Assembly: GCA_963813025.1 (NCBI GenBank)
Contig: CAWEXO010000013.1
Coordinates: 352,001 to 416,000, forward strand
Origin: an uncultured Verrucomicrobiae bacterium
GTDB lineage: Bacteria > Verrucomicrobiota > Verrucomicrobiia > Chthoniobacterales > JAFAMB01
DNA: 64,000 nucleotides
Reading direction: 5' to 3'
This document shows, in pieces, positions 7,499 to 14,029 of the stretch (position 1 is the stretch's first letter; the number at the start of each line of letters is the position of its first letter). The notes under the pieces are model-generated. The model made no database searches, was not told the DNA's origin, and was given only the letters and a program-made list of their open reading frames with translations. The position numbers and the translations under genes were made by a program.

Positions 7499-8644
7499 AT
7501 GATTTCTCAAATCACAACGGGACCATGCTTGTTGATTGTAGATGACGACGACTCCGTTCGAGAAGCCTTTCGTTGTATCCTCCAAGATCGATACCGGATT
7601 GTTGAAGCCTCCGGAGTGGACGAAGCATTGTCGTTGATTGATCGAGAATGTCCGGATTTGGTAACCCTCGATATGCGCATGCCCGACAAGGATGGACTAG
7701 AGGGGCTTCGGCTCATTCGCGAGCGCAGTGAGGGTTTGCCCGTAGTGATGGTTACAGGCTACGGCTCCATTGATACGGCTTGCGAAGCCCTGCGATTGGG
7801 CGCTTCAGATTATTTGGAAAAGCCTTGCGGTTACGACCAGTTAAGAACAATCGTCCGTACGCACCTTAAACCCAAACATTTTCACAGTCCTGATTCGTCG
7901 ATCGCGGAGGTCACTGGACGCCGTGACTCTCCATTGGATCGCGACCCCACTTCATTGTTGGGGAAAGCTTCAATCGCCTTCGCACATGATCTGGCCAATC
8001 CTCTTCAAGTCCTACTTATTTTAACCCGTTCCTCTACTGAGTTATTGGCGTCTGAAGATGAACTTGTTCCCGGACATGTAGAGGTCCTACGGAATAACCT
8101 GCAGCGAATCGAGCTCCTTGCCTCGTGGTGCTCGAATTTAGCGCACCAATGGAGGAGTCTTGCGGAGGCCGATGCTTTTCGCAAATTTGGCGATGGGCCG
8201 TACAGAGCGGAAGAGATTATTGAACAGGCTCTGCATTTGGTGCGCCCCTATGCCGAAATCCATCGAGTGGCGCTCCTCAAGGGTCAGATGGTTAGTTCTG
8301 CTATGGTGCATGGCGATCTCCTTCATATTCTGCGAGCCTTAGCGAATCTGATCACGAATGCTATCCATGCCAGCTCTACCCAAGGTCGTGAGGTCCGGGT
8401 CGCCCTCAATTCTGATTCGTCCAGCGTGAAGTTTAGTGTAACCGACAATGGCATCGGCATACCGGCAGCACGATTGTCTGATTTCATGCAGAATAACCCA
8501 TTCGACCGGTCTAACAGAGGGCCGGGCGGTCTTGGCTTGTTTATTGCAGATTGGATTGTGCGAAACCATGGAGGCAAGCTGCAGCTCTTCAGCGAGGTAG
8601 GCGTTGGAACAACCGCAGAGTTAATTCTTCCTTTGGCAGGCTAA
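7499..8644 (+). CDS. Receiver-histidine kinase hybrid (REC-HisKA-HATPase)
   Basis: LLIVDDD, LDMRMP, YLEKP; H-box FAHDLANPL; NLITNAI, DNGIGI, GLGLFIA. Confidence 0.92.
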   Translation: MISQITTGPCLLIVDDDDSVREAFRCILQDRYRIVEASGVDEALSLIDRECPDLVTLDMRMPDKDGLEGLRLIRERSEGLPVVMVTGYGSIDTACEALRLGASDYLEKPCGYDQLRTIVRTHLKPKHFHSPDSSIAEVTGRRDSPLDRDPTSLLGKASIAFAHDLANPLQVLLILTRSSTELLASEDELVPGHVEVLRNNLQRIELLASWCSNLAHQWRSLAEADAFRKFGDGPYRAEEIIEQALHLVRPYAEIHRVALLKGQMVSSAMVHGDLLHILRALANLITNAIHASSTQGREVRVALNSDSSSVKFSVTDNGIGIPAARLSDFMQNNPFDRSNRGPGGLGLFIADWIVRNHGGKLQLFSEVGVGTTAELILPLAG

Positions 8645-8715
8645 CCACGATTTTGTAGCGTCGCTTTATGCAGTTATCAACAAAAGTATCTCAAGCGGCA
8701 GGTTGAATCGTCACT

Positions 8716-10137: not shown

Positions 10138-12807
10138 ATGCGCATTTCCCTCCGTCAAGGGTACGAACAATACAATCAGCAGGTCCGAATTCAGAATGCC
10201 GGCATCGCTTCGCTGCTCGTGATCGCTCTGATGCCCCTCGGGTCCCTTTTGGATTGGTTCGTCTATCCTCAGTTTTTTGTACCATTTTTCGCGCTCAGGA
10301 TTGCGTGTTCCGCCGCCACCGCCGCAACTTGGCTGATGCTCAAAAGTCGTTACGGGAAGGGGCTTTACCCTTTTCTTATCCGTGCTTGCTACCTGCTGCC
10401 TGCGTTTTCCATGGCTTTAATGATCGCATTCTCTGAAGGTGCAACTTCTCCCTATTATGCAGGGCTTAATCTGCTCATCCTCGGTGTCTGTGCTGTGATG
10501 CGGACGAGCATGTGGGAGAGCTTGTTCTCGATCGGCGCCATCGTTGTCATGTATCTGGGTGCCTGTCTATTCCACGGCAACCTTGGCAGCACCTCCGCGA
10601 GTGTTAATAATATTTATTTTCTGACACTCAGTGCCCTTATTGTGCTGGCTGGTAACTATAATTATAACCGTTTGCGTTATCAGGAATTTATACTTCGACA
10701 TCAACTTGGCGAAAGCCAGCGCGAGCTCGAGGCGCGCCACCTCCAGCTGCGTGAGCTTGATGAAGCCAAAACTCGATTTTTCGCTAATATTAGTCATGAA
10801 TTACGGACGCCCTTGACGCTGATCGCCGGTCCAATCGAAAAGCTTCGCCAGAACGAGATTATTCTTAGACATGGTGAGCTCTCGCAGTTGGTGGACATCA
10901 TGGAGGCAAACTCGTTGCGGCTCTTAAAAATGATTAATAACTTGCTCGAGCTGGTCAGATCGGTCGGCAAGGAAACCAAGCCGGTGAGGTCCGCGGTTCA
11001 ATTAGACCAGATGCTCAACGGATTGCTGGTCTCGGTTGAATACTTGGCCCGGGAAAAGGGACTGCATTTGGAAAAGCAATTCCGACCTTCGGACGCACCG
11101 CTTTTGGTAGACAGTGATAAGCTGGAGAAAATAGTTCTTAACCTGTTGATGAATGCCATCAAGTTTACACCTACCGGTGGCTTGATTTGCATGACGTGGC
11201 AGGTTTCGGATGGTCAATTAACGCTGGAAGTAAGAGACACGGGCATCGGCATCTCCGAAGAAGATCTTGACCATGTTTTCACGCGCTTTTGGCAGGCCAG
11301 TGCCGCATCGACACGTCAGTTTCAGGGCGTCGGAATCGGGCTGGCGGTAGTCAGGGAACTCACGGAGGCAATGGATGGACATGTGTCAGCGGAAAGCGAG
11401 CTCGGCCGGGGTTCGACCTTCAGGGTGATTATTCCCGCAGCGATAACCGATAAGTTCAACAAACGTCAGCCTGATATTCCGACAAATTTTCTAGCGAATG
11501 GTAGACCCGAAGACGAATGGCTGAGATCTCTATACCGCCGTGCGGATTTGTTTGTTGAGACGGTCGACCCCACTTTGGGGGTAAACGAGATATCTCTGGC
11601 GAACCGTAAGCATCCCCTGATCCTGGTGGGCGAGGACGAGGCTGATATGGCAGCGTTCATCGCCGCTCAACTGAAAGAGCGCTTCGACGTCTTGATTGCG
11701 ACGGATGGCCAATATGCCATCGACATGACCCGTCAATACCAGCCCGATCTTCTAGTTTTAGACATGATGATGCCCGAAAAGGACGGCTTGCAGGTATGTC
11801 GTGAACTCCGTGGCCAAACTCAAACCAAAGCCTTGCCGATCTTGATCTTAACAGCACGCGCCGATGAAGAAACGAAGCTCACGGCATTGGAAAATGGTGC
11901 AACTGATTTCTTGACGAAGCCTTTCTCGACCACTGAGCTGCAGGTTCGCTGCAAGAATCTACTGGCACTCGCCTTTTTAAATAATCAGCTGGCCGATCGG
12001 AACCGGAAGCTAACCCACAGTATAGAACAGTTAAAAGAATCGGAAGTCCGGATGGTCCAGCATGCTAAGATGATTTCGCTTGGCCGCATGAGCGCAGGTC
12101 TAATTCATGAGATCAACAATCCCCTCAATTACGTAAATGGAGCCTTGGAAATCCTCAGAAAACGCCTACATGGCTCTGCGCCGCTGGCGTCATCTGCAGA
12201 AATCTTTGATGATATCCAACACGGTCTGAAGAGAGTATCCGATTTGGTGTGCAATCTTCGAACGTTTGCGCGGCCAAATACAACCCCTTTTGAGTCACTA
12301 AGACTCCTGGAATGCGTGCGCCAAGCTTGCCGTCTCACGACTGGTGCCGACGAACAAGTTGCTCGGCCGACAATTGATATAGATCAGGCCATTGTCATCA
12401 ACGGAAATCCCACCCAGATCAGCCAACTTTTGGTAAATCTCATTCAAAATGCACACGACGCCTGCAGCAGCCGTCGCTCGTCCGGCTATCTGCCAAGAAT
12501 TAGTATTGGAGCCGCAGTGCAGCATGAACAATTAAGACTGGAAATTGAAGATAACGGGATCGGAATACCCGACGACATCATGGACAAGATATTTGATCCA
12601 TTTTTTACCACAAAGGAAGTTGGCAGCGGAATGGGACTGGGTTTAAGTATTTGTGCCGGTATTACCAAGTTTCACGGAGGCCAATTGGATGTGCAGAGTG
12701 TAAATGGCAGAGGCACAAAGGTAATCGTGACCCTACCGCTCGTTGAAAAACCCGGGAATGAACAGGAACCTGAGGAAATGAAGGAGCCCTATGAAGCCTG
12801 TATATGA
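10138..12807 (+). CDS. Membrane-bound hybrid sensor kinase, PhcS-like N-terminus (TM-HisKA-HATPase-REC-HisKA-HATPase)
   Basis: ~6 hydrophobic segments incl. [10 protein letters not shown]-boxes SHELRTPL and IHEINNPL; two complete N/G1/F/G2 sets; REC LDMMMP and LTKPF. Confidence 0.92.
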
Positions 12808-14029
12808 CTATAAATCATATTGTATTCTTTATGTCGATGACGAAGTAATGTCGCTGAAATATTTCAGGGCGACTTTTGATGATAGATTTAGGATCATGAC
12901 CGCACCTAGTGCGTCGGAGGCGTTTCGCTTGTTCGAATTGCATAAGGATGATATCGGCATTCTAATCGCAGATCAAAGAATGCCCTCGGAGACAGGTGTG
13001 CAACTGCTCGAAAGGGTGCGCCAACAGCGTCCAAAGATGATTAGAATGCTTGCCACAGCCTATTCTGACCTGAATGCAGCGGTTGCTGCGGTAAATACCG
13101 GAGCGATCTACAAATACATCTCCAAGCCATGGGACATCCGCGAGTTAGAAATCACCCTCATGCGAGCGATGGAGTTCTTCATTATTCAGGGTGAGCGGGA
13201 TGCGCTTCTGCGGGAGAAAATTTCCGCTTTGCATCGGTTGATGATGACAGATCGTTTACTTAGCCTCGGGCTTCTCGCGTCCGGATTGGGTCATCATCTC
13301 CGTAATGCCCTGGTAGCCGTCAGGGTCTTTTTAGACCTCGCTCCACTAACACATATTGATATTGAGCGCGTTAGTAATCCGGATTATTGGCTCGCGTTTT
13401 ATAAGACGGCGCAGTCTCAAATGCGCAAGATTACCGGAATATTGGATAGCCTGGGATCAATTCCAATCACGCCTCCGGCAAGATTTGATGACCAGCTTAA
13501 ACTATCCGAGCTGGCAACCGAAATTGCTAAGTCGAAGGAAGGGCAACAAGGATGGGAAGATCGAGCAGTACAAGTGCAGGCTCCTTCCTCTGAGCGACTT
13601 ATGTCCGTTAATAAAAAAATGTTCGGCCGATTGTTTGATTTGCTCTTTGAAAACTTAGCCGGAGTCACGGCGAAGGAGGCGGTATTCGGCATCGTGGTCA
13701 CAGAAGATAGTCAGAGCGGGGACGTCAAATTGGACTTTTCGGCAGACGGATTGAGATTACCAAAGGAGTCTCTTCGCCACGTCTTCGATCCTTTCTATGT
13801 TCAGGACACCAATCCGAAAGATGCAGGAATCAATCTTCTGATCTGTTACTTCATCGTGTATCATCACGGAGGTCAGTTTATCGCCACCGTGGATGGAGCC
13901 GACATAACCCGCTATACGATCACCCTTCCGCGCCAACGAGAGACGGCAACGATCATCAAAGACGAGGACCAATTTTTAAACAAAGTATTTGCGACCGAGC
14001 AAGCTTGGGAAGGTCTGTTGATTTCATAA
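12791..14029 (+). CDS. Response regulator with degenerate kinase-like output (PhcR/PhcQ-like)
   Basis: ILYVDDE, ADQRMP, ISKPW; H-box-like GHHLRNAL; VFDPF and IVYHHGG retained but no DxGxG; overlaps sensor gene end. Confidence 0.85.
   Translation: MKPVYDYKSYCILYVDDEVMSLKYFRATFDDRFRIMTAPSASEAFRLFELHKDDIGILIADQRMPSETGVQLLERVRQQRPKMIRMLATAYSDLNAAVAAVNTGAIYKYISKPWDIRELEITLMRAMEFFIIQGERDALLREKISALHRLMMTDRLLSLGLLASGLGHHLRNALVAVRVFLDLAPLTHIDIERVSNPDYWLAFYKTAQSQMRKITGILDSLGSIPITPPARFDDQLKLSELATEIAKSKEGQQGWEDRAVQVQAPSSERLMSVNKKMFGRLFDLLFENLAGVTAKEAVFGIVVTEDSQSGDVKLDFSADGLRLPKESLRHVFDPFYVQDTNPKDAGINLLICYFIVYHHGGQFIATVDGADITRYTITLPRQRETATIIKDEDQFLNKVFATEQAWEGLLIS

Follow-up and report, generated by a model that had tools for sequence, protein, structure and literature searches.

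We analysed a stretch of 64,000 nucleotides (the window) from an uncultured Verrucomicrobiae bacterium (contig CAWEXO010000013.1, assembly GCA_963813025.1), which carries a four-gene cassette related to the phc genes, the lipid-ester quorum-sensing system of Ralstonia. Judged by its sequence, the cassette truly belongs to the wider Phc lineage, though in rewired form, and is not a canonical phcBSRQ/PhcA system. We consider it probable that it represents a laterally mobile, rewired autoinducer system of the Phc type that works much as Phc does. By sequence and profile comparison its three core proteins, an S-adenosylmethionine (SAM) methyltransferase, a transmembrane (TM) hybrid sensor and a receiver protein (RK2), are orthologous to PhcB, PhcS and the PhcQ/PhcR receiver clade; the Phc homology proposed in an earlier note on this DNA was recovered for full-length PhcB, for the PhcS TM domain and for the receiver clade.

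The cassette consists of four open reading frames (ORFs) on one strand with products of 381, 445, 889 and 412 amino acids (Table 1): a receiver-kinase (RK0), the methyltransferase, the sensor and RK2. The RK0 and methyltransferase genes are 71 bp apart, the sensor ATG abuts the stop codon ending a stranded tail of the methyltransferase gene, and the sensor and RK2 genes overlap by 17 bp. These tightly coupled genes, and the motifs KPLGYAGDY and SPYYAGLNL, were all found where the earlier note had placed them. Pfam assigned REC and HATPase to RK0, a weak methyltransferase match to the second protein, two HisKA/HATPase pairs and REC to the sensor, and REC with a sub-threshold HATPase to RK2. The host, suspected not to be Ralstonia, is indeed a soil-type Verrucomicrobiota, a Chthoniobacterales-like metagenome-assembled genome of 4.4 Mb (80% complete). 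Ralstonia sp. R-29 and R. chuxiongensis served as stand-ins for the phc genes of the plant pathogen; the best genome-wide matches of Ralstonia PhcB, PhcS and PhcQ each lay inside the cassette, and Paraburkholderia proteins gave the same result.

The PhcB protein of Ralstonia sp. R-29 aligned to the window methyltransferase with 41% identity over 437 amino acids (E-value 5e-108), and this was its sole match in the genome. According to one study (PMC6989110), mutations of PhcB R22 and PhcQ R154 impair Phc signalling; the stand-in Ralstonia proteins have R22 in PhcB and the arginine equivalent to R154 in PhcQ, and these residues align to R23 of the window enzyme and R155 of RK2. The PhcB-like family is large, with 577 clusters at an E-value of 1e-30 or better. 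The nearest named homologue of the enzyme (89%) is from a Chthoniobacterales bacterium, and many of the 120 homologues listed carry the JGI name ‘extracellular factor (EF) 3-hydroxypalmitic acid methyl ester biosynthesis protein’, an automatic, homology-based label. In a tree of 85 sequences, limited to even-numbered representatives of 440-520 amino acids and made, like the receiver tree discussed below, by a quick IQ-TREE run with no bootstrap or outgroup, Burkholderiales PhcB proteins formed one clade within a broad full-length family, and the window enzyme was on another branch. Thus, the assignment to PhcB made in the earlier note stands as far as the full-length family and the retained R22 are concerned, with the caveat that the enzyme is on another branch of this family than the Burkholderiales proteins.

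An intact relative of the enzyme (P0002, 89% identical) was modelled with pLDDT 93; the model combines a beta domain at the N-terminus with a helical domain and a methyltransferase fold of class I (Rossmann). Its structure matches were generic class I methyltransferases, the best being 3ocj (Z 21.0, rmsd 3.7, 261 aligned), and no solved structure related to the enzyme by sequence was found (best E-value 0.12). The N-terminal all-beta domain of the PhcB homologue (window 8716-9003) had no Pfam match and gave a weak PilZ lead in the Atlas (score 0.85).

The TM domain of the sensor, whose relation to PhcS the proposal depended on, matched the PhcS TM domain in HHalign at 100% (E-value 3e-45, 196 columns; reversed control 3.6%). 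The N-terminus has six hydropathy peaks; the PhcS-type TM domain had no Pfam match and is otherwise unclassified. The PhcS kinase matched core 2 of the sensor at an E-value of 1e-72 and core 1 at 5e-32 (HHalign). The protein described as a multi-TM sensor kinase is such a kinase, but not a simple one: it has two kinase cores with a receiver between them, while Ralstonia PhcS has the TM domain and a single core. Residues H220, D542 and H657 and both N-box asparagines were kept in 57 of 57 hybrid sensors. The order TM-histidine kinase (HK)-REC-HK was observed at 31 of 31 metagenome loci and 16 of 17 Verrucomicrobiota-genome loci, and at 0 of 78 betaproteobacterial loci. A methyltransferase gene directly followed by a TM sensor gene is still more general (68/71, 17/17 and 78/78 loci, respectively).

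Several exceptional sensor loci were seen. Three near-identical (97-98%) metagenome loci have the methyltransferase and RK2 genes and lack ~2.4 kb of the sensor (L144:2348-2414, L146:2307-2337 and L162:979-1009), the missing stretch corresponding to window 10125 to ~12543. At L124:3089-5803 (genome G343) separate TM-HK and REC-HK genes take the place of the hybrid sensor, with no RK2 after them, and at L209:249-7158 one methyltransferase gene lies between two full hybrid sensors.

RK2 was 44% identical to PhcQ over 144 amino acids and 30% identical to PhcR. In a tree of 101 receiver domains (137 columns) RK2, PhcQ and PhcR shared a branch with 99% SH-aLRT that excludes RK0, the internal receiver of the sensor and the other receivers of the genome; the L124 row, collected as RK2, grouped with internal receivers. 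The profile match between RK2 and PhcQ covers 176 columns and reaches the first DHp helix, which in PhcQ lacks a histidine. Position D61 was kept in 42 of 42 RK2 sequences, H168 in 28 and the asparagine at 288 in 5, the G2 box is decayed, and seven members are shortened to ~350 amino acids. As D61 is constant while the His, N and G2 boxes vary or are lost, RK2 is probably a binding protein switched by phosphorylation, and its kinase core, whose C-terminal profile does match kinase cores (HHalign E-value 3e-33), is a probable pseudokinase. Hence the downstream receiver does have the kinase-like, non-DNA-binding output ascribed to it, but with decayed catalytic motifs. Whether PhcQ residues 185-335 form a similarly decayed DHp/CA core was also considered: HHalign stayed at control level and the Atlas did not show it either. 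A PhcQ model has long helices followed by a small alpha/beta domain, and in both fold searches the receiver domain filled the matches.

RK0 has D58, H163, N287 and the G boxes intact, and these motifs were kept in 11-12 of 12 rows. The receiver-kinase said to precede the operon is thus present and intact, but RK0 as an equivalent of PhcR was rejected, since it falls in its own clade outside the PhcQ/PhcR/RK2 clade. Where the flanks reach far enough, it lies upstream of the methyltransferase gene at 11 of 46 loci from metagenomes and 2 of 15 from genomes. A small receiver (~150 amino acids) is intact at the head of the cassette in the relatives G010 and G459. An atypical receiver gene also lies upstream of Ralstonia phcB (L081:8324-9361), and similar genes precede phcB in several betaproteobacterial loci.

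No PhcA orthologue was detected at an E-value of 1e-5 in the window genome (80% complete) or in the genomes G010, G395 and G422; G056 gave a weak match of 25%. We take the query to be PhcA from its position 15 kb from phcB and from its start and length. Because no orthologue was found, output wiring differs from that of Ralstonia, in agreement with what the earlier note had suspected. Eight matches to LysR domains, mostly partial, were found in the window genome. Near the cassette, the NarL/LuxR-type gene (16711-17391) is the sole DNA-binding regulator and a candidate output; as a conserved output it was rejected, its best homologue in loci of relatives being 31% identical. Genes following the cassette vary (sigma-54 activators, further receiver-kinases or nothing), so the output is not fixed. 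At L158:15285-17903 and L176:15345-18602 RK2 is followed by genes for a sigma-54 activator, another kinase and a receiver, which are candidate outputs there. A promoter scan was at chance level (6 found versus 7.6 expected).

In summary of the gene content, the cassette resembles Ralstonia Phc in having a full-length PhcB-family synthase, then a 6-TM sensor with a PhcS-like kinase core, then a PhcQ/PhcR-clade receiver with no DNA-binding domain. It differs in having one receiver-pseudokinase, RK2, where Ralstonia has separate phcR and phcQ genes, in the extra intact receiver-kinase and small receiver upstream, in the lack of a detected PhcA, and in a Verrucomicrobiota host, where it is patchy, laterally moved and, in this assembly, has a truncated synthase.

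Across Verrucomicrobiota the three-gene core is conserved, though its occurrence is patchy. The synthase was found in 15 of 401 genomes of the phylum, 32 of 301 of the order and 4 of 43 of the family (window genome counted), and, where flanks allow, a receiver gene follows the sensor gene at 27 of 27 metagenome and 16 of 17 genome loci. An alignment-driven scan of GTDB genomes confirmed at least 596 of 599 candidate stretches; the best 80 of these, which were kept, are nearly all named as Burkholderiales or other betaproteobacteria, and 61 of these 80 have the B-S-R-Q gene order. A plasmid search gave one full-length PhcB homologue among 40 records, in Paraburkholderia graminis, where a TM kinase and two receivers follow.

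Identity at four-fold sites between the window and G010, a genome from another genus, was 0.66-0.79 for cassette genes, versus 0.36-0.37 for rpoB/rpoC and 0.28-0.49 for five exopolysaccharide (EPS) genes; for three cassette genes in G459 it was 0.67-0.74. Third-position GC content was 0.51-0.55 in the cassette and 0.59-0.67 in comparison genes. Together with the flanking insertion sequences (IS), these values argue for lateral transfer after the genera split, and place the movement of the cassette from genus to genus well after the divergence of rpoBC and of the neighbouring EPS genes.

Table 1. Features of the window, with the evidence for each
Feature	Position	Strand	Evidence
IS630-like 5′ remnant, left border of cassette	6747..7225	+	93.6% identity over 481 bp to 16193-16669, opposite strand
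Stand-alone receiver gene, C-terminal remnant, cut by IS	7228..7413	+	tblastn 51% to G010 receiver residues 85-149
RK0, receiver-controlled histidine kinase, accessory	7499..8644	+	Pfam, motifs, receiver tree
PhcB-family SAM methyltransferase; ORF to 10053, conserved tail to 10137	8716..10137	+	PhcB match, model, indels
Hybrid sensor: 6-TM, core 1 (H220), receiver (D542), core 2 (H657)	10138..12807	+	HHalign, motifs, hydropathy
RK2: PhcQ/PhcR-clade receiver (D61), coiled coil, decayed kinase core	12791..14029	+	PhcQ/PhcR matches, tree
IS66-like fragments	14294..15290	+	ORFs 14294-14701, 14608-15051
Full IS630-like copy, right border of proposed inversion	15559..16669	-	Repeat comparison
NarL/LuxR-family response regulator	16711..17391	-	Pfam REC+GerE
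EPS/capsule locus (context, outside cassette)	18596..64000	mixed	Pfam/NCBIfam matches
RfaH-like gene	18596-19198	+	
wzc/wza/outer-membrane barrel	19659-23873	-	
WcaJ-like gene onward		+	

We propose the following scheme. With SAM as its substrate, the methyltransferase would release the methyl ester of a hydroxy fatty acid (or of a related acyl compound), and the 6-TM domain would sense this ester, as suggested by the biology of Ralstonia, whose density-dependent signal is methyl 3-hydroxymyristate or 3-hydroxypalmitate. Core 1 would autophosphorylate at H220 and pass the phosphate to D542 of the internal receiver; phosphorylated D542 would turn on core 2 (H657), which in turn would phosphorylate D61 of RK2. 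This path is modelled on the relay of Leptospira LvrA/LvrB, which has the same HK-REC-HK plus REC-HK layout. LvrA is reported to phosphorylate LvrB (PMC5863495, PMC13269768), and an input-HK-REC-HK hybrid followed by a REC-HK gene, with no DNA-binding domains, is described there as well (PMC5863495). Still, LvrA is cytoplasmic, with PAS input and no synthase partner, whereas the window sensor has TM input; LvrB is an active kinase, whereas the motifs of RK2 are decayed and RK0 is the intact LvrB-like protein. LvrA (NF047465) was the top NCBIfam match of the sensor, at 281 bits against a cut-off of 1200; the likeness is an architectural analogy, not membership. RK2 would act by binding a partner protein and not as a kinase, in the manner of PhcQ, which binds and stabilises PhcA according to PMC13320629. 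RK0 and the small receiver may serve as an optional side branch that reaches a DNA-binding regulator encoded elsewhere. The regulon is probably host-specific, with the adjacent EPS operon as a plausible target.

Several observations weigh against such Phc-like function. The window enzyme is only ~40% identical to Burkholderiales PhcB and is on a separate branch, so its product may differ from that of Ralstonia. The third published marker, PhcS L161, corresponds to F at that number in Ralstonia R-29, and the reference Ralstonia proteins come from outside the plant-pathogen complex. Beyond about residue 185 PhcQ matched the RK2 core at under 1% in HHalign, like controls, and RK2 is therefore better seen as co-orthologous to PhcQ and PhcR than as a strict PhcQ. 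The order of phosphotransfer is proposed by analogy only. Recurrent lipid-related neighbours of the cassette elsewhere speak for the Phc-type reading, and yet no FadL or polyketide synthase (PKS) gene lies near the window copy. FadL-type porins were found at 5 of 17 loci in genomes and 5 of 26 in metagenomes (the queries came from three of these).

It is possible that homologous parts serve other chemistry, the methyltransferase acting on a lipid of the cell interior or membrane, or on some other small molecule, and the sensor reading that metabolite or a lipid from outside, with no density sensing. The large divergence from PhcB, the variable neighbours (PKS, FadL or none), the generic character of the structural matches and one related lineage that kept the enzyme and lost the sensor would all agree with this explanation. 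Yet the adjacency of synthase and sensor is near-invariant across two phyla and the otherwise unclassified TM domain is shared, features that fit a cognate signal-receptor pair; we regard other chemistry as unlikely.

The window copy itself raises a further question, as its methyltransferase ORF ends ~28 codons early. Compared with 4 of 4 aligned relatives, the gene has gained one base near 10050 and lost one near 10080, which causes the early stop; these indels, ~30 bases apart, compensate each other and leave the conserved tail stranded behind them. As assembled, the synthase of this genome is probably dead, either by assembly error or as a real signal-mute state. In the latter case the cassette would be a decaying passenger or an eavesdropping receiver, with synthase and small receiver truly broken while the sensor and RK2 remain. 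The indels do remove the last two strands predicted in the P0002 model (E450-455 and E461-467), the small receiver gene is cut by an IS, and rpoB and rpoC are unbroken, so that the assembly is not uniformly bad. On the other hand, of 61 genes compared with orthologues in relatives, 10 appeared broken in the assembly; leaving out phcB and two antisense frames over the cassette makes this 7 of 58, several of them in adjacent clusters, as local assembly errors would give; moreover, the methyltransferase gene has no second break and is still 89% identical to that of G010. One DNA run (share 0.08) and no RNA run was listed among the sequencing runs carrying this DNA, and contigs from the DNA run leave 10050-10080 uncovered. 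Assembly error appears somewhat more likely than a real mute allele, and we hold the passenger or eavesdropper explanation to be a serious minority possibility.

The EPS locus next to the cassette is real, with RfaH-like, wzc/wza, WcaJ-like, Wzz and Wzy-like genes and many glycosyltransferase genes; between this locus and the cassette lie ~4.5 kb of IS fragments and the NarL-type regulator. The earlier note had proposed that the cassette is linked to the EPS genes and may control them, and its suggestion to look for co-occurrence with EPS loci gave a mostly negative answer. We searched cassette flanks of 9-80 kb, some cut by contig ends, with 16 window EPS proteins (E-value 1e-8), a design in which distant EPS genes could be missed. 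Of 27 other genomes, G010 alone had core EPS markers close to the cassette, the three sets giving 1/17, 0/1 (G459) and 0/9; the markers were seen at 0 of 29 metagenome loci of at least 8 kb and 0 of 72 betaproteobacterial loci. The physical link is thus correct, but with adjacency in a single other genome little weight can be put on control.

The case for the cassette being a dedicated regulator of the adjacent EPS operon, parallel to Ralstonia Phc-eps and acting via the NarL-type regulator or the RfaH promoter, comes from within the family. In G010, which belongs to another genus, the cassette and the orthologous EPS operon stand head-to-head, with ~0.55 kb between the cassette and an RfaH-like gene of the operon; inverting the window segment between the two copies of what is presumably an IS630-like element (so called from its transposase sequence) would restore this divergent layout and put the NarL gene on the cassette strand, which suggests that the window cassette was once head-to-head with the EPS operon too. 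The cassette is younger than the EPS genes and yet adjacent to them in both genomes. The oxidoreductase marker of the EPS operon, which is common in the family (22 of 43 genomes), was present in 4 of 4 family genomes with the cassette versus 18 of 39 genomes with no cassette (Fisher p 0.11). Nevertheless, apart from the survey counts, the G459 cassette is on an 81.5-kb contig with no EPS genes, none of 15 regions (6-20 kb) upstream of family EPS loci had the cassette or a NarL homologue, and the EPS edge is IS-rich and may be a simple insertion hot spot. Adjacency in 2 of 3 informative family genomes could reflect either selection for co-location or such a hot spot. No ops-like motif was found near the head of the EPS operon. 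A dedicated EPS regulator therefore seems doubtful to us.

One could also combine these readings: Phc-type lipid-ester quorum sensing would be a widespread, laterally traded module among the Verrucomicrobiota of soil; in this family it would have come to lie head-to-head with the EPS operon, switching EPS on by a PhcA-independent double-kinase relay and a pseudokinase; signal-mute (window genome) and sensor-deleted (L144/L146/L162) variants would coexist, and RK2 would keep the ancestral receiver-kinase behind PhcR and PhcQ. Taken as a whole, this composite is improbable.

Phc signalling has been studied almost only in Ralstonia and Cupriavidus, and we found no study of Phc outside Burkholderiales or of the EF-labelled proteins in Verrucomicrobiota, in a search that reached mainly open-access papers, most of them judged by their listings. 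The PhcS/PhcR/PhcQ relay is still called poorly understood (PMC7694676, PMC13320629). If a PhcA-free version works in this abundant and largely uncultured soil phylum, fatty-ester signalling reaches further than so far described, cross-talk or interference in the rhizosphere becomes a possibility, and the relay could be dissected in simpler variants supplied by nature. The surprise is tempered by the enzyme being already pipeline-labelled, the cassette being common and EPS linkage being mostly not conserved; what the window adds is lateral transfer within the family, the mostly negative EPS linkage, the IS-bounded inversion and the mute and sensor-less variants.

Other observations concern the neighbourhoods. 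A type I PKS ending in ER-KR-ACP lies directly upstream of the PhcB homologue in two sets of genomes, in 5 of 17 and in 6 of 9 (e.g. L126:1-1824, L129:1-1719), and these PKS-preceded operons have three receiver genes after the sensor. FadL/TodX-type outer-membrane transporters lie near the cassette at L114:7725-8906, L121:16942-18159 and L154:8277-9356. Dense transposase-like ORFs of several kinds flank the window cassette on both sides (1-4337 and 17413-17823); the fragments after RK2 we take to be IS66-like, and the full IS630-like copy has three more copies, >99% identical, elsewhere in the genome. The region contains several polysaccharide clusters, since more Wza, Wzc, WcaJ, RfaH and DegT homologues were found at 65-152 kb, counted from the first base of the window. 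Inside the EPS locus, a second RfaH fragment precedes WcaJ (24157), a 1034-amino-acid protein fuses GT2, NodS-like methyltransferase and polysaccharide deacetylase domains (55097-58201), and three overlapping ORFs in different frames with matches to glycosyltransferase models (58400-60911) are probably one frameshifted gene.

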